Positions 2 through 42,595 of a stretch of DNA of 64,000 nucleotides are shown here, in pieces; the first letter of the stretch is position 1, and each line of letters starts with the position of its first letter. The stretch lies in contig CAYRYE010000001.1 of NCBI GenBank assembly GCA_964428655.1, positions 376,406 through 440,405 of the forward strand, read 5' to 3'. The translations under genes were made by a program, and so were the position numbers. Origin of the DNA: an uncultured Gammaproteobacteria bacterium. Its GTDB lineage: Bacteria > Patescibacteriota > Microgenomatia > UBA12405 > JAHJSD01. The notes beneath the pieces are model-generated. The model worked only from the letters and a program-made list of their open reading frames with translations. It searched no databases and was not told the DNA's origin.

Positions 2-301
2 GAAAAAGGAACTAATTGGCTGGAGTGGAAGGGAAATGTTAAAGAATCGGGCCTTCTTCAAGTTAGTGTTTTCCGTTTCCCAGGCTGGAAGGTTTGGATT
101 GATTATGATGAGGTAGAGTTAACCCATGAAAAAGAGTTGGGTAGAATGCTAGTCAAAGTTGACGAAGGAAAACACAAAGTCTATTTCCGTTTTACCAATA
201 CTCCAATCAGGTCCTGGTCAAACCTGATTTCTCTCTTATCTTGGGGAGTTTTGTTACTTGTTATCCTCAGAAATAAATGGCGAAAAATAACCCTGATATA
301 A
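2..301 (+). CDS. 3' end of a gene that starts upstream of the window; hypothetical protein with a C-terminal TM anchor (…IRSWSNLISLLSWGVLLLVILRNKWRK)
   Basis: Frame 2 is open for 100 codons from the window edge to TAA at 299-301. That is unusually long for a random ORF in AT-rich DNA. A hydrophobic C-terminal segment is followed by a basic tail. Confidence 0.3.
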   Translation, partial: EKGTNWLEWKGNVKESGLLQVSVFRFPGWKVWIDYDEVELTHEKELGRMLVKVDEGKHKVYFRFTNTPIRSWSNLISLLSWGVLLLVILRNKWRKITLI

Positions 302-7153: not shown

Positions 7154-7162
7154 TAATACAAT

Positions 7163-11112: not shown

Positions 11113-12396
11113 ATGGTGAAAACAATTTTTTATCTAGCTTTTTTATTAAGATTTGCCTTGTTGTTTTTTCCTAGTCACGGTGATTTAGCTAATCACGCTG
11201 ATTGGGGAGTTAGGTTTTTTGAATATGGATCGAGAAAGTTTTATGCCCCGGAAACAAATGTCTGGTCACATCTTTGGCCCAACCAGCCTCCCTTAACAAT
11301 TTATCTTTTTGCCGCTGTTCGGAAAACTTATGAAGCCATTTATCAACTTTTATGGTGGGTTAATCTTAATGTTCCTATTTTTCCTTCCAAATTAATGTTT
11401 TGGGTGGAAAAAAGCCTTTATCCTCTTATGTTAAAACTTCCCGCCAGTCTAGCCGATCTGGGCATTGGTTGGCTTATTTATCGCTTTGTGAAAAAGAAAA
11501 AAAATGCAAAAAAGGCTCGTGTTGTTCTGGCGCTGTGGCTCTTCAACCCGATTACTTTTTACAATTCCGCGATGTGGGGCCAAACAGACGCAATTATTAA
11601 TTTCTTTGCCTTAGCCTCTATTTTGCTTTTACTCGAGAAAAGAGCAGTCGGGGCGCTCTTGCTATTTGTTGTTTCTTTATTGTTTAAGTTTTCTTTAATT
11701 CTATTTCTCCCTATTATATTATTGATTATTTGGAAAGAGAAGTTGAGTTTTAAAAAGTGGGCATTTATTTTCGCATCAGTCTTTGCTTTGCTTTATTTTG
11801 TTTCTTTGCCTTTTGTTTACGATAAAAGTAGCCCTTTGGTTTGGCTAATCGCTCTTTATAAAGATAAAATTTTAAAGCATCAGCTTCATTATTTGACTGC
11901 TAATGCGTTTAATTTTTGGGGAGCGGTGTCTGGAATGGGGTTTAAGAGTGATTGGGTCAAATTAGCCGGATTGAGTGTTAAATATTGGTCGTGGATATTT
12001 TTAGTATTGTGGCTGGTTCCAATTTTTGTTTCGCTTTATAAAAAGATTTCCGGGGCAAAAGTTATTTTTTCAACATTCTTTGTCGCTTTTTCCTCTTTTG
12101 TTTTCCTGACCAATATGCATGAACGCTATCTTTATCCTGTTTTTCCGTATTTACTGCTCTCAACTATTTTTTACCCTAAGCTTAAAAAACTTTATTTTCT
12201 TTTGTCCGGAATTCATTTGATGAATCTTTATCATTGGTGGTGGAAACCAAGGATTGGTTTTTTGATAAAGTTATTTGAAGTTTGCCAAGGTGCTTTTCCG
12301 CGGCTTCTTTCGCTGATTAATGTTTTACTGCTGATTTGGACAATGCGTTTTTTTCTTTACTCATTGAAAGGAAAGACTATAATAAAAGGGAAATGA
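11113..12396 (+). CDS. Polytopic membrane protein, DUF2029/Gpi18-like putative mannosyltransferase (GT-C)
   Basis: 427 aa and multi-TM. The N-terminal …FPSHGDLANHADWG… loop follows the first TM helix. The same THGDL-type motif recurs in ORF 62678. Confidence 0.45.
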   Translation: MVKTIFYLAFLLRFALLFFPSHGDLANHADWGVRFFEYGSRKFYAPETNVWSHLWPNQPPLTIYLFAAVRKTYEAIYQLLWWVNLNVPIFPSKLMFWVEKSLYPLMLKLPASLADLGIGWLIYRFVKKKKNAKKARVVLALWLFNPITFYNSAMWGQTDAIINFFALASILLLLEKRAVGALLLFVVSLLFKFSLILFLPIILLIIWKEKLSFKKWAFIFASVFALLYFVSLPFVYDKSSPLVWLIALYKDKILKHQLHYLTANAFNFWGAVSGMGFKSDWVKLAGLSVKYWSWIFLVLWLVPIFVSLYKKISGAKVIFSTFFVAFSSFVFLTNMHERYLYPVFPYLLLSTIFYPKLKKLYFLLSGIHLMNLYHWWWKPRIGFLIKLFEVCQGAFPRLLSLINVLLLIWTMRFFLYSLKGKTIIKGK

Positions 12397-14099
12397 AGAC
12401 TATTTTTCGAGGTTTAAACAAGAGGTTTTGGCTGGCATTGGGCTTTTTAGCGCTAGTCGCTTTTTTAAGACTTTATAGGTTGAATGAAATTCCTCCGGCA
12501 GTTTTTGGGGACGAAGCTGACGTCGGTTATCATGCCTATTCTCTTTGGAAAACAGGAAAAGACTATTATGGACAGCTTTTACCGATTTACATTCGTTCCT
12601 TGGCAGAATGGAGAACGCCCCTTTTAATGTATATAACTGCTCCTTTTGTTGGCGTCTTTGGACTTAATGAATGGGGATTAAGATTGCCTTCGGCTGTTTT
12701 TGGAATATTATCGATAGTTATATTTTATTTGTTGGTAAAAGAATTATTTAAGGATCGATTGATTGCCGGCTTGGCCACTTTGTTTTTGGCTACTTCGCCT
12801 TGGCACATTCAATATAGTCGAATGGCTTTTGAATTGTCTTTTTTGCTTTTCCTGTTTTTGGCCGCTATATATTTGACCCTTGTTGCTTATCGGAAAAATT
12901 GGCTGTTGGTTTTAGCGGCAATTTTTTGGGGCTTGACACCGTATGCTTACAGCACGGCTAACGTTTTGATGCCGCTTTTGCTTGGTTTGCTAGTTTTTGT
13001 TTATCGAAAGAGGATGTTGAAGATCGAGAGAAAATGGCTTTTGGTTTCGATTGTAGTTTTAGGCTTGCTTTTAATTCCAATTGGCAGGGAAATTATTTGG
13101 GGGCACGCCGCTGATAGGGCAAAGTTATTCAGTGTTTTTGGCCACCAGGGGCATCTTGGAGAAATAATTTTTCAAAGGGAAATGGGGGGGTTTTCTTTTT
13201 GGGAAAGAATTTTTCATAATCGGCCTTTGAGTTGGCTGCGATTGATAGGACTTAATTATTTGAGCGCTTTTTCACCATTATTTTTGCTGGAGCGCGGTGA
13301 TGTAACTTTTCGCCATTCGGTTCAAAAGATGGGCCAAATTCTTTGGTCTCAATTGCCCTTGCTTATCTTAGGGGTATATTATTTAGCCGCTAAAGCTAAA
13401 AAGGAGCAAAAATATTTTTGGTTGGGGTGGCTGCTGATTGCTCCGATTCCTGCATCTTTAACTTGGGATGGAGCCTGCCACACCAGCCGGCTTTTTTTAT
13501 TGCTTCCACCATTGATGGTGATTTTTTCAGTGGGTCTGCTTGAAGGAGTTAAATCAATCAGGTCAAAGTTATTAAGGAAAGGATTTTTAGCCTTTTGGTC
13601 AATTTGGCTTTTGATTGGATTCATATTTTATCTTCACCGTTATTATGTTCATTATCCAATTGAATCTTGGCGTTGGTGGCATCTGGGTTACAAAAAAGCG
13701 ATGAATTATATTCAAAAACATGATGACGAATATGAATTGATTGTTATTAATAACACTTATGAGCCGGCCCTGCTTCATTTTTTGTTTGAGACCGGCTACG
13801 ATCCGATTGAATTTCACCGAAATTTTAAAGGAGATGTTCCTAGAGAAAACGCGTTGCCCGGCATTGACGCTTTTTCCTTAGGAGATAAATATTATTTTGG
13901 CACTATTAGCCAAGAGGTGAAAGAATCCGGGGGGATTCCAGTTGTTTTAAGCCCTAAAATGCTTTATTTGATTTCTCAGGAAAAAGAGGTTGGCGGCGAT
14001 TGGGATTGGAGAAAAGATCCACCTTCCGGGGTAAAGGTTTTGGAAACTGCCGTCAATCCTTATAACAAACCAATTTTTTACTTAGTTACTCATGAATAG
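12393..14099 (+). CDS. GT39-family (ArnT/PMT-like, GT-C) glycosyltransferase, paralog 1
   Basis: N-terminal …LRLYRLNEIPPAVFGDEADVGYHAYSLWKTGKDYYGQLLPIY…GLNEWGLRLPSAVFGILSIVIFYLLVKELF is a classic GT39 loop-1 architecture with the conserved acidic DE pair. ATGA overlap with upstream. Confidence 0.7.
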   Translation: MKTIFRGLNKRFWLALGFLALVAFLRLYRLNEIPPAVFGDEADVGYHAYSLWKTGKDYYGQLLPIYIRSLAEWRTPLLMYITAPFVGVFGLNEWGLRLPSAVFGILSIVIFYLLVKELFKDRLIAGLATLFLATSPWHIQYSRMAFELSFLLFLFLAAIYLTLVAYRKNWLLVLAAIFWGLTPYAYSTANVLMPLLLGLLVFVYRKRMLKIERKWLLVSIVVLGLLLIPIGREIIWGHAADRAKLFSVFGHQGHLGEIIFQREMGGFSFWERIFHNRPLSWLRLIGLNYLSAFSPLFLLERGDVTFRHSVQKMGQILWSQLPLLILGVYYLAAKAKKEQKYFWLGWLLIAPIPASLTWDGACHTSRLFLLLPPLMVIFSVGLLEGVKSIRSKLLRKGFLAFWSIWLLIGFIFYLHRYYVHYPIESWRWWHLGYKKAMNYIQKHDDEYELIVINNTYEPALLHFLFETGYDPIEFHRNFKGDVPRENALPGIDAFSLGDKYYFGTISQEVKESGGIPVVLSPKMLYLISQEKEVGGDWDWRKDPPSGVKVLETAVNPYNKPIFYLVTHE

Positions 14100-15759
14100 A
14101 AAACTAACAATTATTGTCATTTTAGTTTTAGCTTGTTTTTTGCGCTTGTGGCGGCTTGATAAATTTCCGCCGGGATTTACTCCTGATGAGGCGGCTCAGG
14201 GGTACACTGCCTATTCGATTCTGAAAACTGGCAAAGATGAGTGGGGTAAGCAATGGCCGCTTAATTTTCGTTCTTTTGGCGATTTTAAGCCGCCGCTTCA
14301 AACTTATTTAATGATTCCTTCAATAGCGGTTTTTGGCTTAAACAAATTTGCTGTTCGTTTTCCAAATGCAGCCTTAGGAATTTTGGCCATTTTGGGTGTT
14401 TTTCTTTTGGTAAAAAAACTTTTTGCCAATAAATTGATTGCCGTTATTTCTTCAATGTTATTAGCTTTTTCTCCTTGGCATATTATGCTTTCTCGGGGTG
14501 CTTTTGAAGCCAACTTAACTGTTTTCTTTATCTCTTTTGGGATTTATTTTTTGTTGAAAAATCAGCAATTCTTGGCCGCTCTTTTTTTAGGTTTAAATAT
14601 GTTCTCTTATCACAGCGCTAAAATATTAACTCCATTAATAATTTTATTATTTATTATTTATCATTTATCTTCTTTAAAGATTAAGATTTCTAAATTAATA
14701 ATTAATAATTCAAAATTCATAGTTATATTCTCTATATTTTTCTTAATTTCTTTTTCCTCATTTTTCTCTGGCGGCCAGAACAGGGGGCTGGATATTGCTA
14801 TTTTTAATCCGACAGACAAATGGCAGGCAGTAGCTGATGAGCGTTGGTGGGGGGTGAAAAATAATTTGCCTGATTTCATCGCTAGGCTTTTCCATAATAA
14901 AGCAACTTATTCTCTGTCAAAATTTGCTAAAAATTATCTCTCTTATTTTTCACCTCAGTTTTTATTCTCAGAAGGGCCGGGCGAGGGGACTTACGGCATG
15001 ATTCCGGGGCGGGGAGTGTTATGGTGGTGGGAGCTGCCGATAATTTTATTCGGACTTTATTGGTTGGTTAAAAAACCAAACAAAGAAACAATTTTAATAT
15101 TGGCGATGATTCTTTTAGTGCCGATTCCGGCCGCTTTAACTAAAGGAACGAGAGCCGCTAATCGAGCCGCAGTAATGATGCCTTGGATTCAGGTGTTTGG
15201 CGCTTGGAGCATTTGGAAGCTCAAAGCTGCATCTAAAAACTTAAAACTTTTTAAGAAAATGTCTTTTGTTTTCCTTGTTTCCTTATCTCTTTATCTTTTT
15301 ATCTCTTTTTTTGAAGACTATTTTATTCAGTCACCAAGAAAAATTGCCAAATCAATGCTTTACGGTCGGTGCGAAGCAATGGAGTATGTGGCTGAAAATA
15401 TGACTGATGCGGAAAACATCATTGTTTCCAGAAAATTATCAGAGCCTCAGGCTTATGTATTATTTTGCCTTAAATATCCCCCAAAACTGGCCCAAAAAGA
15501 AGTTCCTAATTGGTTGGAATATCAAGAAAAAGGCCTAAGTTTTGTGGACCAGTTGGGAGAATATCGTTTAGGGAAATTTGTTTTTAGAGAATTAAATTGG
15601 CAATCAGATTCAAAACTAGACAACACGATTTTGGTTGGTTTGCCAAAAGAGTTTCCTGCTGACATTGAATCAAAGGAGATTATTAATTATCCAAATGGCG
15701 AGCCGGCAGTTATTATTTATCAGGTTCCAAAACAAAATGTTTATGCTTCAAAGTCTTAA
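14092..15759 (+). CDS. GT39-family (ArnT/PMT-like) glycosyltransferase, paralog 2
   Basis: …LRLWRLDKFPPGFTPDEAAQGYTAYSILKTGKDEWGKQWPLNFRSFGD…. Confidence 0.7.
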   Translation: MNRKLTIIVILVLACFLRLWRLDKFPPGFTPDEAAQGYTAYSILKTGKDEWGKQWPLNFRSFGDFKPPLQTYLMIPSIAVFGLNKFAVRFPNAALGILAILGVFLLVKKLFANKLIAVISSMLLAFSPWHIMLSRGAFEANLTVFFISFGIYFLLKNQQFLAALFLGLNMFSYHSAKILTPLIILLFIIYHLSSLKIKISKLIINNSKFIVIFSIFFLISFSSFFSGGQNRGLDIAIFNPTDKWQAVADERWWGVKNNLPDFIARLFHNKATYSLSKFAKNYLSYFSPQFLFSEGPGEGTYGMIPGRGVLWWWELPIILFGLYWLVKKPNKETILILAMILLVPIPAALTKGTRAANRAAVMMPWIQVFGAWSIWKLKAASKNLKLFKKMSFVFLVSLSLYLFISFFEDYFIQSPRKIAKSMLYGRCEAMEYVAENMTDAENIIVSRKLSEPQAYVLFCLKYPPKLAQKEVPNWLEYQEKGLSFVDQLGEYRLGKFVFRELNWQSDSKLDNTILVGLPKEFPADIESKEIINYPNGEPAVIIYQVPKQNVYASKS

Positions 15760-17371
15760 ATTAAAGTTCAAAAAAGAAACGCTTTTCTTAATGGCGGTTG
15801 TTTTTCTGTCTCTTTTTTTGAGAATTTACAAAATTTCTAATAATCCGCCCTCTTTGAACTGGGACGAAGTTTCTCATGGGTTTAACGCTTATTCCGTCTT
15901 AAGAACAGGAAGAGACGAGTGGGGTAAGAGATTTCCATTAATTTTTCAGGCCTATGGTGATTACAAACTACCCCTTTATATTTATCTCACTGTTATCCCG
16001 GTGAAACTATTGGGGCTGAATCCCTTGAGTGTTAGACTAGTTTCCATTCTTTCCGGAGTTGGTTTAACCATGGTTGCTTATTTTTTAACCAAAAAATTAA
16101 CTAAAAACTCTCTGGCGGCAAACCTGGCGGCATTTTTAGTTGCTGTTTCTCCTTGGAGCTTTTTTCTTTCTCGGGTAGCGGTTGAAGCCAATTTGGCTGC
16201 TTTTCTTTTTTCCCTGGGATTTCTTTTTATTTTAAAAGAAAAATATTTTTTAACCGCCTTTTTTTGGGGATTGAGCTTGCACAGTTATAATTCGGCTCGG
16301 GTTTTGGCTCCTCTAATGTTTTTGTTTCTTGTTCTTAATTCAATTAAAAAAAGAAAAATTAAAAAACAAATATTGCCCGCCATTATATTTATATTATTCT
16401 TTATTCCGATTATTCTGCAATTTTTGGGAAAATCAGGTGGAGCGAGATTTTATTGGGTTTCACCGATTGATCAGGGAGTAATTAATCGAATAATTGAAAA
16501 AAGAATCAGTTCTTCTTTGCCGAAGACAATAGTCAGATTGATTTACAATCGGCCTGTTTATTTTATTGGCTATTCAATCAGAAATTACTTTAGCCACTTA
16601 ACTGCCAATTTTTTATTTTTAAAAGGAGGCAGCCATTACCAATTCTCTTTGCCTAATCATGGTCTTCTTTATTTAGTTACCGCCCCATTTTTAATAATTG
16701 GCCTGATTTGGCTGATTGCCGAAAGAAAATGGCTGTTGCTCTTTTGGGCTTTTGCTTCTTTTGTTCCCGCGGCTATTACCAGAGATTCGCCTCATGTTTT
16801 AAGAAGCATTTTAGTTTTGCCTTTGCCAATGATTTTTGCTTCTCTTGGAGTTTGGCAGACATTAGAATGGCTTAAGAAAAAATCTAAACTGGGGGGGAAG
16901 CTTTTTCTTTCAGCCTTTATTATTATAGTATTAATTAGTTTTGTGTTTTGGTGGAAGAATTATTGGCAGATTTACAGAATTCATTACTCTTGGTCCTGGC
17001 AGTATGGCTGCAAGCAGGTAATTGATTATGCTAAAGAGAATTACAGCGAGTACGATAAAATTGTTTTTACCAAGAAATATGGCGAGCCTCACGAGTTTAT
17101 TTTGTTTTATTGGCCTTGGGAGCCTGAGTTTTATCAGCAGGATCCTAGGAGAGTTTGGGATTATCATGCTAATTGGTATTGGGTTGACTCTTTTGACAAA
17201 TTCGAATTTTGGAATGATTGGGAAGTAAAAGAAAAACTCAAAACTACAACTCAAAACTCAAAGCTTTTATTAATTACTTCACCGGGAAATTGGCCAGAAG
17301 AAGGGGAATTACTTAAAACAATTGAATTTTTGGATAAAGGCAAAGTTTTTGAAGTAGTAGAGTATAAGTAG
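15737..17371 (+). CDS. GT39-family (ArnT/PMT-like) glycosyltransferase, paralog 3
   Basis: …LRIYKISNNPPSLNWDEVSHGFNAYSVLRTGRDEWGKRFPLIFQAYGD… The likely start (ATG 15737 or 15743) overlaps the upstream gene by about 20 nt. The ORF track start is 15635. Confidence 0.65.
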   Translation: MFMLQSLKLKFKKETLFLMAVVFLSLFLRIYKISNNPPSLNWDEVSHGFNAYSVLRTGRDEWGKRFPLIFQAYGDYKLPLYIYLTVIPVKLLGLNPLSVRLVSILSGVGLTMVAYFLTKKLTKNSLAANLAAFLVAVSPWSFFLSRVAVEANLAAFLFSLGFLFILKEKYFLTAFFWGLSLHSYNSARVLAPLMFLFLVLNSIKKRKIKKQILPAIIFILFFIPIILQFLGKSGGARFYWVSPIDQGVINRIIEKRISSSLPKTIVRLIYNRPVYFIGYSIRNYFSHLTANFLFLKGGSHYQFSLPNHGLLYLVTAPFLIIGLIWLIAERKWLLLFWAFASFVPAAITRDSPHVLRSILVLPLPMIFASLGVWQTLEWLKKKSKLGGKLFLSAFIIIVLISFVFWWKNYWQIYRIHYSWSWQYGCKQVIDYAKENYSEYDKIVFTKKYGEPHEFILFYWPWEPEFYQQDPRRVWDYHANWYWVDSFDKFEFWNDWEVKEKLKTTTQNSKLLLITSPGNWPEEGELLKTIEFLDKGKVFEVVEYK

Positions 17372-17395
17372 GAAACAAGATATTTAAAGTTGTCG

Positions 17396-17700
17396 AGTTA
17401 AGTTCGCTACACAAATAGGGTATCCATAATAGTGGTGTGGTCTTCCCACCGAGCAACGGAGGTCATGTTCTCCGCCCCTTCCTTCAACGCGTTTTGGACA
17501 AGATTTTGCTGTTGTTCCATTTTCTGTCTGAACGCTTACTCTTGCATAGGCTCTTACTGAACCTCTGCCAGACCGATCCCTTGTTCTGCCTCCACAAAAT
17601 GCTTCAGCCATGCCTGCATTTTACCATATTCGCAAGGAACCACCTGGGCCGTGTGTCCCAGAGGCTATGCGTTTCATTGTTGAAGCTTCTGCGATTTTGA
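17396..17700. other. GC-rich (~48%) non-coding island between the GT39 paralog and rlmN. Possibly a structured RNA or a degraded gene remnant.
   Basis: No protein-like ORF in any frame. Local hairpin CCUGGG-n8-CCCAG at 17643-17662. Composition resembles RNA genes of AT-rich genomes. I could not match it to an RNA family by eye. Confidence 0.2.
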
Positions 17701-17722
17701 CTTTAGTTGTAAAATATAAGGG

Positions 17723-18793
17723 ATGAAAAACAAAACTAATTTTGAAACTACAAGGTTTGATCTTATTAGAGAGTTTTTGAAATCGAAAAATGAACCCAAT
17801 TACAGGTTTAAGCAATTGGTGGATGGAATATTTAAACAGCGAGTGAACGAGTTTGAAGAAATTATGGTTTTACCAAAACCGCTTCGGATTGAGCTTAAAC
17901 AAAAATTTGGCTCAGTGTTAACAGTCAAAGTGCTTAGGAAAACTAAATCGTCCCAAGCTACCAAAGTTCTTTTTGGACTGCATGATGGTGAGCGCGTAGA
18001 AATGGTAGAAATGGATTTTAAAGGAGAAAAAAGAAAATGGAAATCCTTGTGTGTTTCTTCTCAAGTTGGTTGTGCTTTAGGGTGCGCTTTTTGTGCCACA
18101 GGAAAAATTGGTTTGAAGAGAAATATGACACCGGATGAAATTATTGACCAAGTGCTTTATTTTCATCTTCAGGGCAGTAATATTAATAGTATCTCATTTA
18201 TGGGAATGGGGGAGCCCTTAGTTAATCCAGCGGTTTTTACTGCAATTAAGGCCTTCACTGACAAGAATCTTTTTAATTTCAGCCCGCGAAGAATTAGTGT
18301 TTCTACAGTCGGTATTGTTCCGGGAATTAAAAAATTGATTAAGCAATTTCCTCAAGTTAATATTGCCTTCTCATTGCAGACTCCATTTGAAAGGCAAAGA
18401 AGAGAGTTAATGCCGATTAGCAAACAGTATCCGATCAGGGAGGTTTTAGCGGCTTTGGACGATCATATTAGGAAAAACAAAAGAAAAGTGTTTTTGACCT
18501 ACATAATGCTGAAAGAAGTTAATGACACGGAAAGGCATTTGTTGGCTTTAAAAAAGTTAATTAAGAGCAGAGGTAAAACTTCTTATCTCTATCATGTGAA
18601 TTTGATTAGATATAATCCGGCTGTCATGGTGGGGGGAAGATTTCAATGTTCTTATAAAGCTAAAATTGAACACTTTAGGCAAGAATTGGAAAAGGCGGAA
18701 ATCAATGTCACTTTAAGACAATCTTTCGGTGTTAAACATCAGGCTGCTTGTGGGCAGTTGTATGCGGAATACGATTCCGTCCCTATTCGTTGA
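17723..18793 (+). CDS. rlmN: Dual-specificity RNA methyltransferase RlmN (23S rRNA m2A2503 / tRNA m2A37), radical SAM
   Basis: CALGCAFCATG (CX3CX2C) cluster, GMGEPL motif, and overall RlmN/Cfr architecture with an N-terminal HhH-like domain. Confidence 0.85.
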   Translation: MKNKTNFETTRFDLIREFLKSKNEPNYRFKQLVDGIFKQRVNEFEEIMVLPKPLRIELKQKFGSVLTVKVLRKTKSSQATKVLFGLHDGERVEMVEMDFKGEKRKWKSLCVSSQVGCALGCAFCATGKIGLKRNMTPDEIIDQVLYFHLQGSNINSISFMGMGEPLVNPAVFTAIKAFTDKNLFNFSPRRISVSTVGIVPGIKKLIKQFPQVNIAFSLQTPFERQRRELMPISKQYPIREVLAALDDHIRKNKRKVFLTYIMLKEVNDTERHLLALKKLIKSRGKTSYLYHVNLIRYNPAVMVGGRFQCSYKAKIEHFRQELEKAEINVTLRQSFGVKHQAACGQLYAEYDSVPIR

Positions 18794-19030
18794 GTTAGAC
18801 TTGGTTTGCACACGGTCGCGCCGCGCTTATTAGTGGGCTATGCAGCCTCTGGGCAGCTGCGCCTACTGCCTTCACACCTGTAAAAAGTGTTACTTCTTCC
18901 TCCGGGCGATGGAGCTAATCTTGAGCATCCTCTTCTCAAACATCCAGCATATTTTTCTCTCAACCCTGTGAAAGTGCCTGAATATTTTTCTTTAAGTTCT
19001 AGCATTGGCGGTAGCTTTTTTTCTGCCATA

Positions 19031-19098
19031 GAAAAATTATAACAAAAGAAATAAAATAATAAAATAACCTCCGAGACACGGCACCTGGGAAGAAAACT
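19031..19098 (-). terminator. Putative intrinsic terminator downstream of the cyclase gene (imperfect hairpin followed by a U-rich tract on the minus strand)
   Basis: The minus-strand RNA reads …CUUCCCAGGUGCCGUGUCUCGGAGG UUAUUUUAUUAUUUUAUUUCUUUU. Confidence 0.3.
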
Positions 19099-19109
19099 CC
19101 TTTACCTTG

Positions 19110-19703
19110 CTATTTTGAAGTTGGCTGCCAATAATAAAGATTAGTTTTTTTACTAAACCCCTTTAGTTTTTTAGAATTAAATCTTTTCAATTCTTTTTTT
19201 TGGTTTTTGTTGAGTTGAGAATAAATATTTTGAGTCACTAAGACGTTTTCTTTTAACTTGCTCAATAATGAGCTGACCCTGAATGCTTTGATTATGGTTG
19301 GGCCGGTATGGAAGTTTCCAATCATTTTTAGTTTTGAATTTTTTGCTGAGAAAACTTTTCCTGCATCAATCCCTACTCCTAGGCTTAGCGGGAAATTATT
19401 ATTGTTCTGGAAGCTATTCATAAAAGATTTCGCCATGTTGAATGCTCTGTTGGCATTGTCTCTTCCTCTAAACAAAACGCCAACGCCATCTCCAAGATCG
19501 TTGATAATTTTGCCGCCAAAAGCAAGGGCGTGTTTCTCTAAAGTAAGATAGTATATATTGAGTAGCCTAGCTGTTTGATTTGCTTTTTGACAAACTACGA
19601 ATTCGGTGAAGTTTCTTAAGTCAAACCAGGCATAAGCGGCAATAAAACCTTTTAGTTTTAGTGAAGCTTTGTTTTTGGCAATGTCAATGTGATGATTAAC
19701 CAT
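19110..19703 (-). CDS. Stand-alone class III nucleotidyl (adenylyl/guanylyl) cyclase-like domain protein (197 aa)
   Basis: AAYAWFDLRNFTEF (aligns to the F-DIvGFT metal-Asp motif), KIINDLGDGVGVLF (aligns to the IGDaym second Asp), and GVGIDAGKVF…MIGNFHTGPTIIKAFRVSS (aligns to RIGIHtGpv…GDtVNlAsR). The transition-state Asn appears replaced (Ile). Confidence 0.5.
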   Translation of the reverse strand: MVNHHIDIAKNKASLKLKGFIAAYAWFDLRNFTEFVVCQKANQTARLLNIYYLTLEKHALAFGGKIINDLGDGVGVLFRGRDNANRAFNMAKSFMNSFQNNNNFPLSLGVGIDAGKVFSAKNSKLKMIGNFHTGPTIIKAFRVSSLLSKLKENVLVTQNIYSQLNKNQKKELKRFNSKKLKGFSKKTNLYYWQPTSK

Positions 19704-19793
19704 AGACTTTAAAGACTAACAATTCAAGAGTTACAGAACTATAATAGCACACACGCGCTTTAGTTAAAGCAAAAAAACTGTTAGAATATTTTT

Positions 19794-20582
19794 ATGAAAC
19801 CAAGCGATTTTGTTGAAGTGGTGGTTAATTCTTATCAAAATGGTAATGGAATATTCGCTAATAAAGTTAACGCTGAGGATTTACTACCAGCCAAAATTGA
19901 TAATTTGAACAGGGCCCTTTTTCTTTTTTACGTAATTCAGTTGGATTATGCTACCAAATCTCAAAAGTTGTACCTTGGGGCCAGGAAACTTTTTAATGAA
20001 TCTATTTTATTTTTTACTCCAGAATTTATTGTCGAGATGGATGAGAAAGAGTTAAAGAATTTGTTAAAGAAAAAGCTCAGGCCGAGATATATAAACGAGG
20101 CGCTAAAGAGGTATAAATTAAATTCTCGTTTTCTGTTGGATAATTATGCTGGCGACCCCAGGAATATATTTAGAAATTCAACAACTGCTCGCGATGCTTT
20201 GAAAAAAATCAGGGAATTCAGGGGTTTTGGGCCCAAAATTGGCAATTTCTTTTTTAGAACAATGGTTAATACTTTTAGTTTCAATTATCCAGACATTGAA
20301 AAAATATTGCCACCTGTGGACGTTCATGATGTAAGAATTGCTTATTTAATGGGGTTTATTTCTTCTGAGAAAATGTCCGGTGATAATATTAAAACGGTTA
20401 AAAATTTGTGGAATTCTGCCTGTCGAGGGGCAAATAAGAGTTGGTTAGAATTCGACAAGGCCTTGTGGTTAATTGGTTCAGAGGGTAAGCCAAAGACGAA
20501 AGAAGATGTTTTAAAGGTGGTTCTGAACATTAGGGAGACAAATGAAGAGAATAGTTTTGCGACAAAATGCTATAAATGTTAA
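19794..20582 (+). CDS. Hypothetical protein with an HhH-GPD-like motif (FRGFGPKIGNFFFR), possibly base-excision-repair-glycosylase-like
   Basis: 262 aa. The helix-hairpin-helix Gly-Pro-Lys-Ile-Gly segment resembles the HhH-GPD superfamily. Confidence 0.3.
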   Translation: MKPSDFVEVVVNSYQNGNGIFANKVNAEDLLPAKIDNLNRALFLFYVIQLDYATKSQKLYLGARKLFNESILFFTPEFIVEMDEKELKNLLKKKLRPRYINEALKRYKLNSRFLLDNYAGDPRNIFRNSTTARDALKKIREFRGFGPKIGNFFFRTMVNTFSFNYPDIEKILPPVDVHDVRIAYLMGFISSEKMSGDNIKTVKNLWNSACRGANKSWLEFDKALWLIGSEGKPKTKEDVLKVVLNIRETNEENSFATKCYKC

Positions 20583-20659
20583 CTCGGTTCCTCCGGGCCT
20601 CGCTGATTATATGCGCGCGATTTTTGTTCGGCTCTTTTGAGCCAGTGATATAAACAATC

Positions 20660-20992
20660 TTAAGTATTAATTCTTGAAGCGTAGTTGAAGCAATGAAAAT
20701 ATTTTTGCCAAAGTTGATCAGAAGAGCTGTGTTGATTTTTACCCCAGAAATAGTCGACTAATAATTCATTTAGCCTTGTTAATTCTTTTAAACGAGCTTT
20801 ATTATTTTTGTTTTTTATACTAAGTTCTAATAATTCAAGTGCTCTTACAAAGGCTTTTTGGCTATATTCTAAGTTGTTTTTATTTTTCCAAATAATTACC
20901 CTATTTACCTCACTGCCAATATTGGCCATTTGTTCGAAAAGGCTCATATTATTCCAATTACCAGAGGCTAGTTTTTGGTGTTGAAAACTCAT
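20660..20992 (-). CDS. Small hypothetical protein (110 aa), second gene of a two-gene minus-strand operon
   Basis: ATGA overlap with the upstream partner. Weak resemblance to MazG-like small all-alpha pyrophosphohydrolases, which I cannot confirm. Confidence 0.4.
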   Translation of the reverse strand: MSFQHQKLASGNWNNMSLFEQMANIGSEVNRVIIWKNKNNLEYSQKAFVRALELLELSIKNKNNKARLKELTRLNELLVDYFWGKNQHSSSDQLWQKYFHCFNYASRINT

Positions 20993-21330
20993 TTTGCTAT
21001 CAACTTGTTTACAATCCTTATTATTTTTTCTTGTGTCTTTGGATTATCTACGCCTTGAGAAAGGTTTTTCAAAGAAGGACGGACATTAATCATTGAATCG
21101 AATTCAATTCTGTCGTTTTCTCCTATTTTTGGATAGATGTTTATTCCCCACAAATTTTTTTGTTTAGAGCCATTTTGAAGAAGAAGAGCTTCTTCGTCTG
21201 CGTGTAATTCTCCATTTATGGCCATTATTTCTTTTTCTATGTCAACAACGGCTTTAACCAAATTACCAAACATTTGCTCGGCCATTTTTTTAAGTTCTTT
21301 AATGGAAACTTTTTGGTTTACAATTTTCAT
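20989..21330 (-). CDS. Small conserved hypothetical protein, DUF5674-like (113 aa)
   Basis: …KELKKMAEQMFGNLVKAVVDIEKEIMAINGELHADEEALLLQNGSKQKNLWGINIYP…FDSMINVRPS… matches from memory the conserved pattern of an uncharacterised family common in CPR and Firmicutes. Confidence 0.4.
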   Translation of the reverse strand: MKIVNQKVSIKELKKMAEQMFGNLVKAVVDIEKEIMAINGELHADEEALLLQNGSKQKNLWGINIYPKIGENDRIEFDSMINVRPSLKNLSQGVDNPKTQEKIIRIVNKLIAK

Positions 21331-21439
21331 TTAAGTAATTTTAACATGAAATGAGAAACAAGTTTTGCTTATTTATAAATTATTTTTCTTGCGCGCGTTT
21401 TTTTGCTTCGCAAAATAAAGTAAATGGTAAAATACTCCC

Positions 21440-22024
21440 ATGCAGAATTTTAAAAGCGTAATTGGCATAATTGCCACTTTACTGGTTCTTGTTGGTTACA
21501 TTCCCTATGTTCGAGATATTATCAAAGGAAAAACAAAACCCCATATTTACAGTTGGTTTCTTTGGGGATTTGTAACTTTAATTGCTTTTGCTTTGCAGGC
21601 TAGTGACAATGCTGGAACGGGATCTCTGGTTACTTTGGCAGCGGGGTTGATGTGTTTGGTTGTTATTGCTTTGGGCTTTATTTACAAAAGTAAAGTAGAG
21701 ATCACCAGAACTGATACTTTGTTTTTAATTTTAGCTTTTATTGCTCTTGGCCTTTGGCTTTTAGCTAAACAACCAACTCTTTCAGCCATTCTTATTACTT
21801 TAGTTGATTTATTTGGTTTTGCTCCGACAGTCAGAAAATCTTGGAACAGGCCCCACTCTGAGACCCTCTCGTTTTATTTTTTAAATACCCTTCGCTTTGC
21901 TTTGGCTGTTTTTTCCTTGCAGCATTATTCAATAATTACCACTCTTTATCCGTCCACCTGGTTGTTAGCCAATGGCTTGTTTGGCCTGGTTCTTGTTATC
22001 CGTCGAAAACAGTTGAGTGAGTAG
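21440..22024 (+). CDS. Small polytopic membrane protein (about 6 TM helices), unknown function
   Basis: 194 aa and highly hydrophobic. Confidence 0.5.
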   Translation: MQNFKSVIGIIATLLVLVGYIPYVRDIIKGKTKPHIYSWFLWGFVTLIAFALQASDNAGTGSLVTLAAGLMCLVVIALGFIYKSKVEITRTDTLFLILAFIALGLWLLAKQPTLSAILITLVDLFGFAPTVRKSWNRPHSETLSFYFLNTLRFALAVFSLQHYSIITTLYPSTWLLANGLFGLVLVIRRKQLSE

Positions 22025-22155
22025 TTGCTCTGCTAGTAGTTTTTAAAAAGTTTTATTTTTCGAAAATCCATGGCGGATAAGGATTCGAGCCTGCTTAGGC
22101 CCTATAGACTGCTTGTGGTGAAGTTTAGGGAAAAGCTTGTATAATTGGACTTAGG

Positions 22156-23838
22156 GTGAGGGAAAAGAAAAAAATTGGCATTATTTTGGCTGGTTTGTTT
22201 TTGGTTGGTTTCTTTCTGAGAATTTGGCGAGTCAATAATTATCCCCCTTTGCTTTGGGACGAAGCGGCATTGGGATACAATGCTTATTCCATTTTAAAAA
22301 CCGGGCGGGACGAGCATGGTCAATTTCTTCCTTTAATCTTTAAGTCTTTCGGCGATTACAAGCCCGGTCTTTATGTTTATTTGACTCTGCCCTTTGTGGC
22401 CATTTTTGGCTTGAATGAGTTAGCCGTTCGTTTGCCGTCAGTAATCTTAGGGTCATTAATGCCCCTGTTTTTATATTTGCTGGTAAAGGAAGTTTTCAAG
22501 AAGAAAAATTGGCCTGTTGGCCAATGGCTAGCAATTCTATCTGCCGCTGTTTTGACTTTCTTACCCTGGCACATTCATTTTTCCCGCGGCGCTTGGGAAA
22601 CTAACGCGATGATGTTTTTCTTGGTTTTGGGCTCCTGGCTGTTTATGAAATCTTTGAGTTCACTATCCACCATCCATTATTCACTATTTGCTTTCCTACT
22701 TTCTCTTTGGTCTTATCAGAGCGCCAAAATGCTAGTGCCGCTGATTTTGTTGGGTTTACTAATTTTTGGAAAATTGGAAATTGTAAATTGGAAATTGTCC
22801 TGCAAAGCGGGATTGTCCTTTGGACGAAAAATTCTTCCATTAATAATTTTATTTTTAATGGGAGCGTGGTATTGGCAGAGTTTTTCCGGCCCGGCCAAGA
22901 ATCGCCTTAAAGTAATGAATCTTTTTTCTCACCGACGGCCTCAGGAGGAAATTCAACAATTGTTAAATGAGGATAATGAAAAAGAAAAGAATTTGCATTT
23001 TTATATTTTTCACGGAGAATGGCTGCATTTTTTTCGAGGTTCTTTAACTCGGTACTTTAATCATTTTTCGCCTCGATTTTTGGCTTTTGACGGAGATTGG
23101 AGCAATCCACGCCATTCAGCCCCCTACTTTGGCATGATTGGCCATGTTAATTTTGTTTTATTGATAATTGGTTTAGGATTTTTTATTTCTAAAAAAAGAA
23201 GTTTAAAAGAATATTTCTTTTTATATTGGCTGCTAGTTGCTCCGTTGCCGGCGGCCTTGACCAGAGACATCGTCTCCGGAGTTAGAGCTTTGGGTATGGT
23301 AGTGCCAATTAGTTTTTTCATTGGGTATGGGTTGATAAATATCAAAATTTCAAAATCTGCTTTTCGCTATTTGCTTTTCACTATTATTTTATTGGATTTT
23401 ATCTATTGGTTTGATCTTTATCACACTCACATGGTAAAAAGACTTCCTAAAGAATGGCTTTATGGTTATAAGGAGGCAATCAGTTTTGTTATGGGCGGCG
23501 AGGATAAATTCGACAAGGTAATCCTGACAGATTTTTACGGCCAACCTCATATTTATTATCTTTTTTACTCAGGTTATTCACCATCTGAATATCAACAGAA
23601 GTTAAAACTGACAGAAAATGAAATGGGCGATGTTGCCAAGATGGAATTTCTGGATAAAATTAGTTTTAGGCCGGCTAGCTGGGGATCAGACAGAGATGCT
23701 GAAGACGCTTTGATAGTTTTTCCTCGCGATGAGTTTTTAAGGGGTGAACTTGAGGGAAAACCTGAAGCGGTTTCTCGACTCGAGCCTTTGGGGGTTATTA
23801 ATAATCAACCAATGTTCTATGGCCTTAAAAATAAGTAA
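22156..23838 (+). CDS. GT39-family (ArnT/PMT-like) glycosyltransferase, paralog 4
   Basis: …LRIWRVNNYPPLLWDEAALGYNAYSILKTGRDEHGQFLPLIFKSFGDYKPG… Contains the 2x14-nt (4x7-nt) tandem repeat at 22771-22798. Confidence 0.7.
   Translation: MREKKKIGIILAGLFLVGFFLRIWRVNNYPPLLWDEAALGYNAYSILKTGRDEHGQFLPLIFKSFGDYKPGLYVYLTLPFVAIFGLNELAVRLPSVILGSLMPLFLYLLVKEVFKKKNWPVGQWLAILSAAVLTFLPWHIHFSRGAWETNAMMFFLVLGSWLFMKSLSSLSTIHYSLFAFLLSLWSYQSAKMLVPLILLGLLIFGKLEIVNWKLSCKAGLSFGRKILPLIILFLMGAWYWQSFSGPAKNRLKVMNLFSHRRPQEEIQQLLNEDNEKEKNLHFYIFHGEWLHFFRGSLTRYFNHFSPRFLAFDGDWSNPRHSAPYFGMIGHVNFVLLIIGLGFFISKKRSLKEYFFLYWLLVAPLPAALTRDIVSGVRALGMVVPISFFIGYGLINIKISKSAFRYLLFTIILLDFIYWFDLYHTHMVKRLPKEWLYGYKEAISFVMGGEDKFDKVILTDFYGQPHIYYLFYSGYSPSEYQQKLKLTENEMGDVAKMEFLDKISFRPASWGSDRDAEDALIVFPRDEFLRGELEGKPEAVSRLEPLGVINNQPMFYGLKNK
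22771..22798 (+). repeat. Perfect tandem repeat, 2 x 14 nt (AAATTGGAAATTGT), also read as 4 x 7 nt, inside GT39 paralog 4
   Basis: Direct reading. Encodes …KLEIVNWKLSC…. Confidence 0.8.
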
Positions 23839-25354
23839 GCGGAAATTGGTTTTGATATTAATTTTATTTTTGGCGGCTTTTTTACGGCTTTATAGATTGG
23901 GTCATTATCCGCCCTTGAATGCCGACGAAGCGGCTATTGGCTATAATGCTTGGTCTATTTTAAAAACCGGCCGGGACGAGCATGGTGGCTTTTTACCCCT
24001 TCATTTCAAATCTTTCGGCGATTACAAGCCAGGGGGATATTTTTATGTTGTTCTGCCCTTTGTTGGTTTTTTAGGTCTTAACGAGTGGGCGGTTAGACTG
24101 CCTTCAGTTTTAGCAGGAATACTTACTGTTTGGCTGGTTTACCAACTGGCTAAACTGCTCTGGAAGAATGAGAAGCTGGGCTTGATTTGGGCTTTTGTTT
24201 TAACCATTTCACCTTGGCACATTCATTTTTCCCGCGGCGGCTGGGAAAGTAATTTTGCTCTGTTTTTAATTATTTTAGGAGTCTATTTTTTTTACAAATT
24301 CCTTTCTACCCGTTTAATCAAATACTTTATACTTCATACCTCATACTTCATACTTTCTCTATATATTTACCACAGCGCAAGAATTATTGCTCCGGTTCTG
24401 TTTTTAGGTTTAGTTTTATTTAACTGGAAGTTTTTTTGGCAGAGCAGGAAGCAAATCATTGCTCCACTGGTTTTTGGTTTTTTGCTTTTAATTCCGCTTG
24501 TTTTTTCGTTTTTAAAAGGCGGCGCTTCATCTAGATTCTCTGGAGTTGGGTTGTTTGCCGATACCGGCCCTTTCTGGCGAGTCAATGAGTTATTAAATCA
24601 GCATGAAGGAAAGGGTTTTCCATTTGTTAGGTTAATTCATAATAGGTTTATTATTTATGGCATTTCTTTTGCCCAGAAATATTTTTCTCATTTTAATGGC
24701 CAATTCTTATTTATTGATGGTGATGATGTGCCCCGAAGCAAAGTGCCTGACATGGGAGTGATGCACTTATTTGAAGTGGGATTTTTAATTTTAGGCATTT
24801 GGTTTTGGCTGCGAGGCAAAAGAAAGTATAAATATTTACCATTCTTATTATTAATAACAGGTCCTTTGGCATCGGCAATGACTTTTCAAGCCCCAAGCGC
24901 CTTAAGATCTTTGCCAATGGTGGTGCCGCTGACCTTTTTTGTTAGTTATGGAATCATTAACATTATTAATTTATTAAATAAAAAATTTGCCAAGCTTACT
25001 ATCTGTTATTTACTGTCTATTATCTATCTATTTAGTCTTTGTTACTGGCAGGATCGTTATTTTACTCATTATTTAAAACGATTTCCTTCGGCCTGGCCTG
25101 ATTTTAGACCGGTTGCGAATTGGGTTAAAAATAATGGTGATCAGTATGAAAAAATCTGTATTACCGGCAATTATGATCAGCCCTATATTTTGGCTTTATT
25201 CTATCTTCAATATCCGCCGGAAAAGATTCAAAAAGAGATTAAATTGACACCACCGGACGAGTTTGGTTTTTCTACAGTTGAAAACTTTGGAAAATATTAT
25301 TTTGGCAATTGCCAGGATTTCGATGGTAAAATAATTCATGGTTCAAAATACTAG
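23819..25354 (+). CDS. GT39-family (ArnT/PMT-like) glycosyltransferase, paralog 5
   Basis: …LRLYRLGHYPPLNADEAAIGYNAWSILKTGRDEHGGFLPLHFKSFGDYKPG… The likely start, ATG 23819, overlaps the upstream gene by 20 nt (ORF track start 23744). Contains the ATACTTC heptamer repeat at 24322-24356. Confidence 0.65.
   Translation: MALKISKRKLVLILILFLAAFLRLYRLGHYPPLNADEAAIGYNAWSILKTGRDEHGGFLPLHFKSFGDYKPGGYFYVVLPFVGFLGLNEWAVRLPSVLAGILTVWLVYQLAKLLWKNEKLGLIWAFVLTISPWHIHFSRGGWESNFALFLIILGVYFFYKFLSTRLIKYFILHTSYFILSLYIYHSARIIAPVLFLGLVLFNWKFFWQSRKQIIAPLVFGFLLLIPLVFSFLKGGASSRFSGVGLFADTGPFWRVNELLNQHEGKGFPFVRLIHNRFIIYGISFAQKYFSHFNGQFLFIDGDDVPRSKVPDMGVMHLFEVGFLILGIWFWLRGKRKYKYLPFLLLITGPLASAMTFQAPSALRSLPMVVPLTFFVSYGIINIINLLNKKFAKLTICYLLSIIYLFSLCYWQDRYFTHYLKRFPSAWPDFRPVANWVKNNGDQYEKICITGNYDQPYILALFYLQYPPEKIQKEIKLTPPDEFGFSTVENFGKYYFGNCQDFDGKIIHGSKY
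24322..24356 (+). repeat. Heptanucleotide tandem repeat (ATACTTC-like, 5 units) inside GT39 paralog 5
   Basis: atacttt atacttc atacctc atacttc atacttt. Encodes …KYFILHTSYFIL…. Confidence 0.8.
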
Positions 25355-26159
25355 ATACAAATTATCAGTTGCCATTGCAGCATATAATGAAGAAAAAAAT
25401 ATTGGCCGCTGTTTAGATTCAGTTAAGGGCTGGGTGGATGAAATTGTTGTTTTCGATGAATTTTCCTTTGATAGAACTAGGGAGATTGCTGAAAAGTACG
25501 GTGCTAAAGTTTTTAAAACTAAACATAAACCAATCTTTCATATCACTAAACAGAAAGCAATTGATAAATGCAAAGGAGAGTGGATTTTACAGCTAGATGC
25601 TGATGAAGTCGTTGATAGAGAATTAAAAAAAGAGATTTTAGAGATAACAAGGCAAAAAAAACACTTTGGGAGTGGCCCGAGGATGCCAATTGCCTTTTAC
25701 ATTCCCAGAAAAAACCATTTCTTGGGAAAGTGGCTTAAAAAAACCGGCCAGTATCCGGATCCGGTAATTCGGTTTTTCAAGAAAGGGAAAGCCCGTTTGC
25801 CTTGCCAATCAGTTCATGAACAAATGAAAGTAGATGGCGAAACTGGTCGGTTAAAAGGTCATTTATTTCACTACCCTTATCCTAATTTCTCTGAATATCT
25901 GCGAAAATCTAATCGCTATACAACCTTGACAGCTCAGGAAATGCTGGACCGAGGCGAAAAGCTGGGCATTGTTTCTTTTTTAAAAGCCTATTTTAAGTTA
26001 GAAAAAACTTTCTGGTCGCTATTTCTTCGCCACAAAGGCTTTTTAGACGGTTTCCCTGGATTTGTTTTCTCAGCCTATTCTGGTCTTCACCACATCACTG
26101 CCTATGTTAAATTCTGGGAGCTTCATAAACAGAGTAGAAAAACTAAAGTGTCAACTTAA
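25338..26159 (+). CDS. Family 2 glycosyltransferase, WaaE/KdtX-like
   Basis: LSVAIAAYNEEKNIGRCLDSVKGWVDEIVVFDEFSFDRTREIAEKYGAKVF…QLDADE. Confidence 0.7.
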   Translation: MVQNTRYKLSVAIAAYNEEKNIGRCLDSVKGWVDEIVVFDEFSFDRTREIAEKYGAKVFKTKHKPIFHITKQKAIDKCKGEWILQLDADEVVDRELKKEILEITRQKKHFGSGPRMPIAFYIPRKNHFLGKWLKKTGQYPDPVIRFFKKGKARLPCQSVHEQMKVDGETGRLKGHLFHYPYPNFSEYLRKSNRYTTLTAQEMLDRGEKLGIVSFLKAYFKLEKTFWSLFLRHKGFLDGFPGFVFSAYSGLHHITAYVKFWELHKQSRKTKVST

Positions 26160-26178
26160 GACACTTTGGGTGTGAAAA

Positions 26179-26207
26179 TAGACAAGGCTTTTCGTAATTG
26201 GTATAAT
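26179..26207 (+). promoter_or_regulatory. Near-consensus sigma70 promoter with extended -10: TAGACA-17nt-TGgTATAAT. The predicted TSS is about 26214.
   Basis: tagaca at 26179-26184, TG at 26199-26200, tataat at 26202-26207. It sits at the 5' edge of a 575-nt GC-rich non-coding island. Confidence 0.5.
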
Positions 26208-26213
26208 TAGAGA

Positions 26214-27812: not shown

Positions 27813-27868
27813 GAAAAAATTACCCCTTGACAGGCTTTTTAAAATGCTGTTCTATTGAAATAGAGCTT

Positions 27869-41760: not shown

Positions 41761-41797
41761 GGATTTTTAATTAAGGTAACATATAATTTACAAATTA

Positions 41798-42565: not shown

Positions 42566-42595
42566 CAGCTTAATGTATAATATTTATTCTACCCC

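Follow-up and report, generated by a model that had tools for sequence, protein, structure and literature searches.

Five divergent GT-C_A paralogs kept in fixed order within a conserved glycan locus of Microgenomates-type bacteria

The locus described here raises the question of why five homologous membrane glycosyltransferases should be encoded side by side in one genome, and on what acceptor they would act. The five genes, here named W1 to W5, lie between positions 12393 and 25354 of a stretch of 64,000 nucleotides (contig CAYRYE010000001.1, GenBank assembly GCA_964428655.1), which as a whole is referred to as the window. An earlier reading of the same DNA (the original prediction) had described them as GT-C paralogs resembling GT39, the family of the protein O-mannosyltransferases (PMTs), and had seen in them part of an unusually elaborate lipid-linked glycosylation capacity, possibly serving proteins or an S-layer. 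We propose, with a probability that we place at roughly 55%, that W1-W5 are five non-redundant GT-C_A transferases that depend on polyprenyl-phosphate sugars and decorate an envelope glycopolymer or lipoglycan. The more general statement, that they are transferases of the GT-C type using lipid-linked donors, is very probably correct.

Family assignment, fold and key residues

The five genes of the array are the following:

12393..14099, + strand: W1, GT-C_A paralog of 568 aa, orthogroup 1, motif FGDEAD (DE at residues 40-41)
14092..15759, + strand: W2, GT-C_A paralog of 555 aa, orthogroup 2, motif TPDEAA
15737..17371, + strand: W3, GT-C_A paralog of 544 aa, orthogroup 3, motif NWDEVS
22156..23838, + strand: W4, GT-C_A paralog of 560 aa, orthogroup 4, GTG start, motif LWDEAA
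23819..25354, + strand: W5, GT-C_A paralog of 511 aa, orthogroup 5, motif NADEAA

The open reading frames (ORFs) and the five motifs were recovered just as first predicted, and the protein sequences and starts are identical to the gene calls in the NCBI, JGI and Logan assemblies. The proteins align collinearly over their full length, with pairwise identities of 29-38% and 54 invariant columns that include the DE pair. Using the Pfam models PMT and PMT_2 as proxies for GT39 and GT83 membership, all five proteins scored above the gathering cutoff of both models, with 25.8-40.9 bits against 22.7 for PMT (PF02366), where the margins of W2 and W3 are small, and 27.7-52.3 bits against 26.1 for PMT_2 (PF13231); W1 reached 40.9 and 52.3 bits, respectively. 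Judged from the E-values of these matches (1e-13 to 1e-5), which span only the N-terminal ~220 residues, the likeness is not a product of chance. The assignment to PMT-like GT-C proteins with an acidic pair was therefore borne out, although not in the sense of a canonical GT39 family, and the refuting condition named in the original prediction, paralogs that fail to score as GT39/GT83, did not arise. The C-terminal GT39 module PMT_4TMC (PF16192) had no match at E <= 0.01 in any of the five proteins, the NCBIfam Pmt equivalog NF058602 was matched by W2 alone and failed its cutoff by far (20.6 bits vs 800), and the NCBIfam Agl23 model remained sub-threshold for the array proteins (28-48 bits vs 126).

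Sequence searches of the PDB with single paralogs returned no match. The profile of the five paralogs matched ArnT only (5ezm, E 0.002 over 165 residues, a marginal match at 10-11% identity), a W4-centred profile of 63 sequences matched STT3 only (E 0.004, also marginal), and none of the solved PMTs was reached by the array profiles. As these searches were null or marginal, the family cannot be assigned to GT39, GT83 or GT66 from sequence alone, and it appears about equally distant from ArnT and STT3. An AlphaFold model of W4, based on the 63-sequence alignment, reached a pLDDT of 92.7 and a pTM of 0.92, and its Foldseek search against the PDB gave 26 matches at E <= 1e-3, exclusively to GT-C_A enzymes. 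These include STT3/OST (E 8e-8), ArnT, AglB, Pmt4, PglB, ALG9/ALG12 and DPY19, at identities of 10-17% and TM-scores of 0.43-0.53, the best superposition being that of ArnT (TM-score 0.51/0.53, 11% identity). The model has ~11 transmembrane helices and a lysine/arginine-rich N-terminus, and the DE pair opens the first juxtamembrane helix after the first transmembrane helix (PPxxxDE). The last transmembrane helix is followed by a soluble alpha/beta domain of ~130 residues, predicted by helix counting to be extracellular; when this domain of W4 was modelled alone (pLDDT 86.9), the PDB search gave no significant match, the best one (E 0.22) being to unrelated methyltransferases. W1-W5 are thus a divergent GT-C_A family in the PMT/PMT_2 sequence neighbourhood.

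Conservation across 284 family sequences was followed in the residue numbering of W4, where the DE pair is D35 and E36. Both residues, as well as R377, are invariant (284/284), D52 and R92 are present in 282 of the 284 sequences, R144 in 279 and R250 in 276. Other positions differ by orthogroup: R319 is replaced by Y in W2 and by Q in W3, and the pair R370/D371 by F/Q in W5 and by K/G in W2. From the invariant D/E pair, all copies look catalytic. The combination of invariant key residues and orthogroup-fixed differences fits sub-functionalised, competent enzymes rather than pseudo-enzymes or redundant copies.

Orthogroups, gene order and distribution

The genes of the array are tightly packed. 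W1 and W2 overlap by 8 nt and W4 and W5 by 20 nt, as stated in the original prediction, which gave a range of 8-20 nt; the W2/W3 overlap of 23 nt (17 nt if the second ATG, at 15743, is the start) lies outside that range. The GT87-type gene upstream overlaps W1 by 4 nt (ATGA), and W5 overlaps the downstream GT2 gene by 17 nt. A Shine-Dalgarno sequence precedes W1 and W4, no obvious one was seen for W2, W3, W5 or the GT2 gene at 25338, and a TATAAT-like box stands 5' of W4. This pattern fits translational coupling in two sub-operons, as had been suggested from the overlaps, without proving it. The promoter and terminator scan of this AT-rich DNA was uninformative (53 sites vs 41 expected), and neither Rfam nor tRNA scans gave a match anywhere in the window, its two long intergenic regions included.

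Relatives of W4 are numerous: 4,717 of the 8,000 candidates scored matched at E <= 1e-5, and an exhaustive profile search gave 6,379 clusters (50% identity) at E <= 1e-30. The names given to W4 relatives, where there are any, are 'glycosyltransferase family 39 protein', 'phospholipid carrier-dependent glycosyltransferase' or, at JGI, 'ArnT-like', and the named ones come from Patescibacteria or Shapirobacteria. A scan with one genome per species yielded 79 loci (L001-L079), all of Microgenomates type (Shapiro-, Woese-, Ames-, Collier-, Davies-, Curtiss-, Levy- and Gottesmanbacteria). Many of them (L001, L003-L005, L007, L008, L021, L022 and others) are titled 'MAG TPA_asm: uncultured Gammaproteobacteria bacterium' while having the same synteny, and these labels are probably wrong. 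The loci nearest to the window are L011 and L014, with 52-61% identity for W2-W5, and the Microgenomates placement of the window is based on these two. Between two and eight family members within ~20 kb were found in 77 of the 79 loci, the overall copy number being 1-8, so that tandem multiplicity is the norm in this lineage and not an exception. Therefore, of the "unusually elaborate" capacity first proposed, the elaborate lipid-linked glycosylation with a DPM1-like synthase stands, whereas the word "unusually" holds in a relative sense at most.

By best-match assignment, the order W1-W2-W3-W4-W5 on one strand recurs in many genomes, with a ratio of best to second-best bit score of 1.5-3, and orthologs of each window paralog are 40-61% identical in many of them (58-60% for W2 in L007, L011 and L014). 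A neighbour-joining (NJ) tree of 284 members, the kind of paralog phylogeny that the original prediction had proposed, separates the window paralogs into five clades of 24-62 sequences from 23-49 loci, each with about one sequence per locus. The core groups were recovered in 58 (W1), 39 (W2), 60 (W3), 58 (W4) and 58 (W5) of 60 NJ bootstrap replicates, values that are partly circular because the core sets were picked by BLAST score ratio; W4 and W5 were sisters in 44 of the 60 replicates. All five clades are present within the fetched flanks of 16 of 78 loci and are ordered on one strand in 13 of these 16, and the orthogroups ascend in 29 of the 33 loci with at least three of them. Overlaps occur in 118 of 162 pairs of neighbouring family genes, and 61 of these overlaps measure 4 nt. 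Arrays are also present in the deeper-branching Curtiss-, Levy-, Gottesman- and Daviesbacteria, with no one-to-one mapping onto W1-W5, and 61 of the 284 sequences lie outside the five clades. W1-W5 are ancient orthogroups whose order, 1-2-3-4-5, has persisted in many Microgenomates, mostly with overlap between the genes.

The separation of the array into three and two genes is due to the following segment, which lies outside the glycosylation system:

17372..22155, no strand: insertion of 4.8 kb between W3 and W4
17723-18793: RlmN, inside the insertion
19110-19703, - strand: ORF of 197 aa with an adenylate/guanylate-cyclase domain, inside the insertion
20989-21330, - strand: DUF5674 protein, inside the insertion

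The segment also holds three ORFs without a family match. Since W3 and W4 are contiguous or overlapping in the closest relatives, it is a lineage-specific insertion and the source of the 3+2 split; the two genes adjoin in this way in L004, L011, L014, L026, L028, L029, L041, L049 and L079. In five other loci (L009, L022, L025, L038 and L075) the W2 and W3 orthologs stand 1.4-1.7 kb apart, and the gene that fills this space has no equivalent in the window. Insertions are tolerated by the array, and the junction that takes them varies with the lineage. Neither the insertion origin of the split nor the conserved orthogroups in fixed order had been noticed in the original prediction. A search of the full-text literature gave no paper describing GT39/PMT-type arrays in Microgenomates or in the Candidate Phyla Radiation (CPR). 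The enzyme class, the three-component logic and the generic database annotation of the proteins are already known; what appears to be new is the set of five conserved orthogroups in fixed order, the location of this set inside a conserved envelope-glycan locus and a C-terminal domain with no structural match.

Donor, acceptor and alternative explanations

The array lies within a longer run of glycosyltransferase and transport genes, of which the following bear on its possible function:

277..8850, + strand: upstream block of a Wzx-type flippase, a protein with 12 transmembrane helices, five GT2 and one GT4 (Pfam)
1689-3398: the 12-helix protein of this block, 569 aa, ~12 hydrophobic segments, unmatched in Pfam and NCBIfam at up to E 5
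9214..11058, - strand: GT87-family GT-C-like protein, 614 aa, PF09594 at 37.5 bits vs a cutoff of 25
11113..12396, + strand: GT87-type polytopic membrane protein, sub-threshold Pfam match to PIG-U
25338..26159, + strand: GT2 (PF00535), directly after W5 in at least 15 loci at 44-71% identity
26655..27812, + strand: GT4 (PF00534), kept after the GT2
33641..34837, + strand: PIG-V/PMT_2-like polytopic protein, sub-threshold GT-C candidate, syntenic in L007, L014 and L042
36275..37561, + strand: second Wzx/MOP flippase (PF01943, PF13440), overlapping the start of the DPM1-like gene
37509..38312, + strand: DPM1/GtrB/ArnC-like GT2, putative polyprenyl-phosphate-sugar synthase
38315..39304, + strand: GT2 with C-terminal transmembrane helices, conserved neighbour of the DPM1-like gene
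39269..41017, - strand: PMT_2-like membrane domain fused to TPR repeats, PMT_2 at 25.4 bits vs a cutoff of 26.1

The order of these genes is conserved as Wzx, 12-helix protein, three GT2, GT4, (GT87-like), two GT2, GT87-type and W1-W5, followed by GT2, GT4, (PIG-V-like, Wzx), DPM1-like GT2 and the GT2 with transmembrane helices. The upstream block has the same order in L009, L014, L022, L025 and L028, homologs of the 9214 protein occupy the same place in L009, L022 and L041, and in at least 15 loci the gene at 11113 has its counterpart just 5' of W1 or in the space that separates W1 from W2. The presence of a DPM1-like synthase at 37509, as first predicted, is well supported, its best PDB match being the dolichyl-phosphate mannose synthase of Pyrococcus (5mlz, E 8e-16), followed by GtrB (5ekp, E 3.5e-8) and ArnC. 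Its orthologs are 54-57% identical in L026, L028, L029, L042 and L079, and in L042 the second Wzx/MOP gene is syntenic with it. The GT2 at 25338 is not DPM1-like.

Starting from these observations (the genes, the fold, the conserved motif, the orthogroups, the synteny and the presence of the donor synthase), we infer a donor sugar, a flippase, an acceptor and one linkage for each paralog in the following way. The DPM1-like GT2 would charge a lipid carrier in the cytoplasm, and the lipid-linked donor would be flipped across the membrane, the adjacent Wzx-type protein being a candidate for this role. Each W enzyme, through the invariant Asp-Glu in its first extracytoplasmic loop, would then transfer the sugar to a distinct acceptor position or linkage. 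The acceptor would be an envelope glycopolymer or lipoglycan, with a core made by the neighbouring GT2 and GT4 enzymes and exported by Wzx, and W1-W5 would be co-expressed through their overlapping reading frames. A glycan or lipoglycan, as opposed to a protein, seems to us the slightly better supported acceptor.

Previous studies of other systems give this model its precedents. The three-component paradigm of synthase, flippase and GT-C acting on an exported glycan is established, and several GT-Cs act on one glycan in the case of mycobacterial arabinan (PMC11127046). In its mode of action the proposed system would resemble the elaboration of mycobacterial lipomannan and arabinan by several GT-Cs, or the GT-C side-chain glycosylation of streptococcal rhamnan and of O antigens. 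As in the GtrA/GtrB/Gtr*, GacI/GacK/GacL and GT136 systems (PMC11127046), the W locus has a synthase, a candidate flippase and GT-C genes beside the backbone glycosyltransferase genes. However, in three-component systems each modification usually has a single GT-C, and the flippases are small GtrA/SMR or MATE proteins, whereas the W locus has five homologous GT-Cs plus three or four distant ones, and flippase candidates of the Wzx/MOP type only. The synthesis of mycobacterial and corynebacterial lipomannan (LM), lipoarabinomannan (LAM) and arabinogalactan (PimE, MptA/B/C, EmbA/B/C, AftA-D, Ppm1) also brings many GT-Cs to bear on one envelope glycan, outside the membrane and with polyprenyl-phosphate sugars as donors, and shares with the W locus a GT87-family member, a DPM1-like synthase and a monoderm envelope. 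Unlike in that system, the W family is not close to Emb, Aft or Mpt (Foldseek E 0.025-0.9), the W locus shows no evidence of a phosphatidylinositol anchor or of arabinose donors, and the mycobacterial genes do not form a single ordered array of homologs.

Several points weigh against the proposal of a decorated glycopolymer. The Pfam names point to protein O-mannosyltransferases, and a protein acceptor keeps an appreciable probability. No initiating phosphoglycosyltransferase, significant match to a Wzy-type polymerase or LCP-type ligase was found in the window, so that the polymer pathway, as seen there, is incomplete; likewise, no flippase of the GtrA, SMR or MATE type was seen in the window, and Wzx is a putative donor flippase by its adjacency. 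The similarity to Emb/Aft is weak (Foldseek E 0.025-0.1), the C-terminal extracytoplasmic domain, with its best PDB match at E 0.22, gives no sign of carbohydrate binding, and the partial circularity of the bootstrap described above belongs here as well.

The foremost alternative is that W1-W5 are PMT/GT39-like enzymes that transfer mannose from polyprenyl-phosphate-mannose to Ser/Thr residues of secreted or S-layer proteins, the paralogs dividing the substrate range or pairing as yeast Pmt1-Pmt2 do. This we regard as unlikely, albeit with an appreciable chance of being right. It would account for PF02366 scoring above gathering in all five proteins, for a DE motif like that of PMTs, for Pmt4 among the structural matches of W4, for the DPM1-like synthase of the locus and for the NCBI label 'glycosyltransferase family 39 protein' on some homologs. 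The GT39 PMTs (yeast Pmt1/2/4, and actinobacterial Pmt such as Rv1002c of M. tuberculosis) do share with the W family the Pfam PMT match, the DE pair and the GT-C_A fold, and with the W locus a polyprenyl-phosphate monosaccharide donor made by a DPM1-like GT2; eukaryotic PMTs also include several paralogs working together. The W proteins, in contrast, have neither PMT_4TMC nor a MIR domain and carry the ~130-aa alpha/beta C-terminal domain instead, they are only 14-17% identical to solved Pmts, and their genes stand in a locus of the polysaccharide type. Also against this alternative, the Pmt equivalog was reached by one paralog only and far below its cutoff, the profiles reached just ArnT (E 0.002) and STT3 (E 0.004) and no solved PMT, and the highest TM-score was that of ArnT, a lipid-modifying enzyme. 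Bacterial PMT systems are not known to need more than Ppm1 and one Pmt; here, a conserved Wzx and many GT2/GT4 genes form a context typical of polysaccharide assembly.

A candidate protein acceptor lies 2.5 kb downstream of the array:

27827-32443: S/T-rich surface protein of 1538 aa, N-terminal membrane anchor, CarboxypepD_reg/transthyretin-like repeats

This anchored protein contains 19% Ser+Thr and 11% Gly and sits between the conserved GT4 and the PIG-V-like gene; the feature also takes in 32551-33222 on the minus strand. It could be a glycoprotein, with nothing to tie it to the array, and since the syntenic loci elsewhere lack it, it is weaker as a dedicated acceptor. The suggestion of protein or S-layer O-glycosylation made in the original prediction finds no specific evidence.

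A second alternative, that W1-W5 modify membrane lipids, a lipid anchor or glycolipid head groups in the manner of ArnT or RgtA-D, is very unlikely in our opinion. ArnT gives the best TM-score (0.51/0.53) and the sole match of the five-paralog profile, PMT_2 is above gathering, JGI labels homologs 'ArnT-like', and the two families are alike in size and in having a C-terminal extracytoplasmic soluble domain. In Rhizobium, the ArnT-like paralogs RgtA-D each have their own acceptor position and add galacturonic acid to the core of lipopolysaccharide (LPS) and to lipid A, and a dedicated GT2 of the ArnC or RgtE type makes the donor, a feature shared by the W locus. The ArnT match is nevertheless marginal (10-11% identity, profile E 0.002), the 64-kb window contains no LPS or lipid A genes, and the genes conserved around the array, GT2, GT4 and Wzx, are those of glycan building. 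CPR bacteria are regarded as lacking LPS. Also unlike ArnT/RgtA-D, the W enzymes form five fixed orthogroups in one operon-like array. Finally, the possibility that the array consists of recent, redundant or variable duplicates, whether serving serotype or antigenic variation as Gtr* or decayed and non-catalytic, is already strongly disfavoured and has next to no probability in our estimation, for, although copy number varies from 1 to 8 among loci, the four deeper-branching groups lack a one-to-one mapping and 61/284 sequences fall outside the five clades, the paralogs are just ~30% identical, their orthologs are 40-61% identical in many genomes with bit-score ratios of 1.5-3, each clade has about one copy per locus with bootstrap values of 39-60/60, the order is conserved, and every copy retains, unchanged, the DE pair and further key residues.

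Returning to the decoration of an envelope glycan by W1-W5, a stronger form of the proposal may be considered. A heteromeric W complex would agree with the overlaps between the genes and would have a precedent in the PMTs, and it is conceivable, though doubtful, that W1-W5 and the GT87-type partner form a translationally coupled, stoichiometric, hetero-oligomeric line that builds a Microgenomates-specific lipoglycan or secondary cell-wall polymer wholly outside the membrane, with polyprenyl-phosphate monosaccharides as its building blocks. Such a line would correspond to the LM/LAM/arabinogalactan synthesis of mycobacteria but would have evolved independently, in bacteria that are ultra-small and episymbiotic, and the polymer would do much to determine their cell surface and their contact with hosts. 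Microgenomates have genomes of ~1 Mb and almost no biosynthetic capacity. One of their loci here holds five homologous GT-Cs, another three or four of more distant kinship and some twenty cytoplasmic glycosyltransferases, and such an investment in reduced genomes suggests that the envelope glycan is central to their biology, which may include host attachment. The array overturns no concept. It does bring to light a large, uncharacterised family far from every solved GT-C, and its orthogroups with group-specific residues are a concrete starting point for assigning acceptor specificity to each paralog. Because the present labels are inconsistent (GT39, ArnT-like, 'phospholipid carrier-dependent glycosyltransferase'), the orthogroup scheme would also improve annotation.

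Neighbouring genes and other features of the window

The further GT-C-like proteins listed in the original prediction fared unequally. The 9214 protein was upheld as GT87-like and above threshold, those at 11113 and 33641 reached sub-threshold matches only, the one at 39269, which is fused to TPR repeats, scores marginally with PMT_2, and that at 62678 is EpsG/Wzy-like rather than clearly GT-C. The 11113 and 9214 proteins share a WLFNPIT..GQ.D motif (BLASTP E 5e-12). Compared with the array profile by hhalign, the 11113 protein gave a probability of 7% and the 12-helix protein (1689-3398) one of 2%, so that neither bears a meaningful likeness to the array. The 12-helix protein directly follows the first Wzx in L009 and L025 (37-41% identity) and is a candidate polymerase or ligase of the pathway. 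The 39269 fusion reached a probability of 75% and E 2.5e-5 against the profile A1 in hhalign and is a remote relative of the array family. A pathway resembling that of glycosylphosphatidylinositol anchors, evoked by the names PIG-U, PIG-V and Phosphodiest together with DPM1, was also considered and rejected: the PIG matches are sub-threshold, the 'PIG-U-like' protein is really of the GT87 type, and the phosphodiesterase has no transmembrane segments, unlike PIG-N/O.

Between the GT2 and the GT4 that follow W5 lies an intergenic region of 495 bp (26160-26654), GC-richer than its surroundings, with short ORFs only and no Rfam or tRNA match; its best sigma-70-like match, at 26179-26207, agrees in 11 of 12 positions and has a TG extension. 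Further downstream, positions 41029-57496 hold a second glycan module, of the ABC-transporter type, which contains five S-adenosylmethionine-dependent (SAM) methyltransferases as well as the following genes:

46386-47411: radical SAM/SPASM protein
49127-50584: B12-binding radical SAM protein
51177-51947: ABC-2 permease
51931-53391: ATPase fused to a methyltransferase domain
53394-56441: protein of 1015 aa with two GT2 domains and a weak sulfotransferase-like N-terminus

This module is followed by a trio of genes (57502-62593), the first of which encodes a 1216-aa protein with CotH kinase and beta-helix/NosD domains, the other members being:

61142-61903: VTC-domain protein
61916-62593: DUF4956 protein

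Over the window as a whole, + strand genes make up ~80% of the total, almost all 2-kb bins show a positive GC skew and the cumulative skew climbs steadily, and the entire stretch appears to lie on the leading strand of one replichore.

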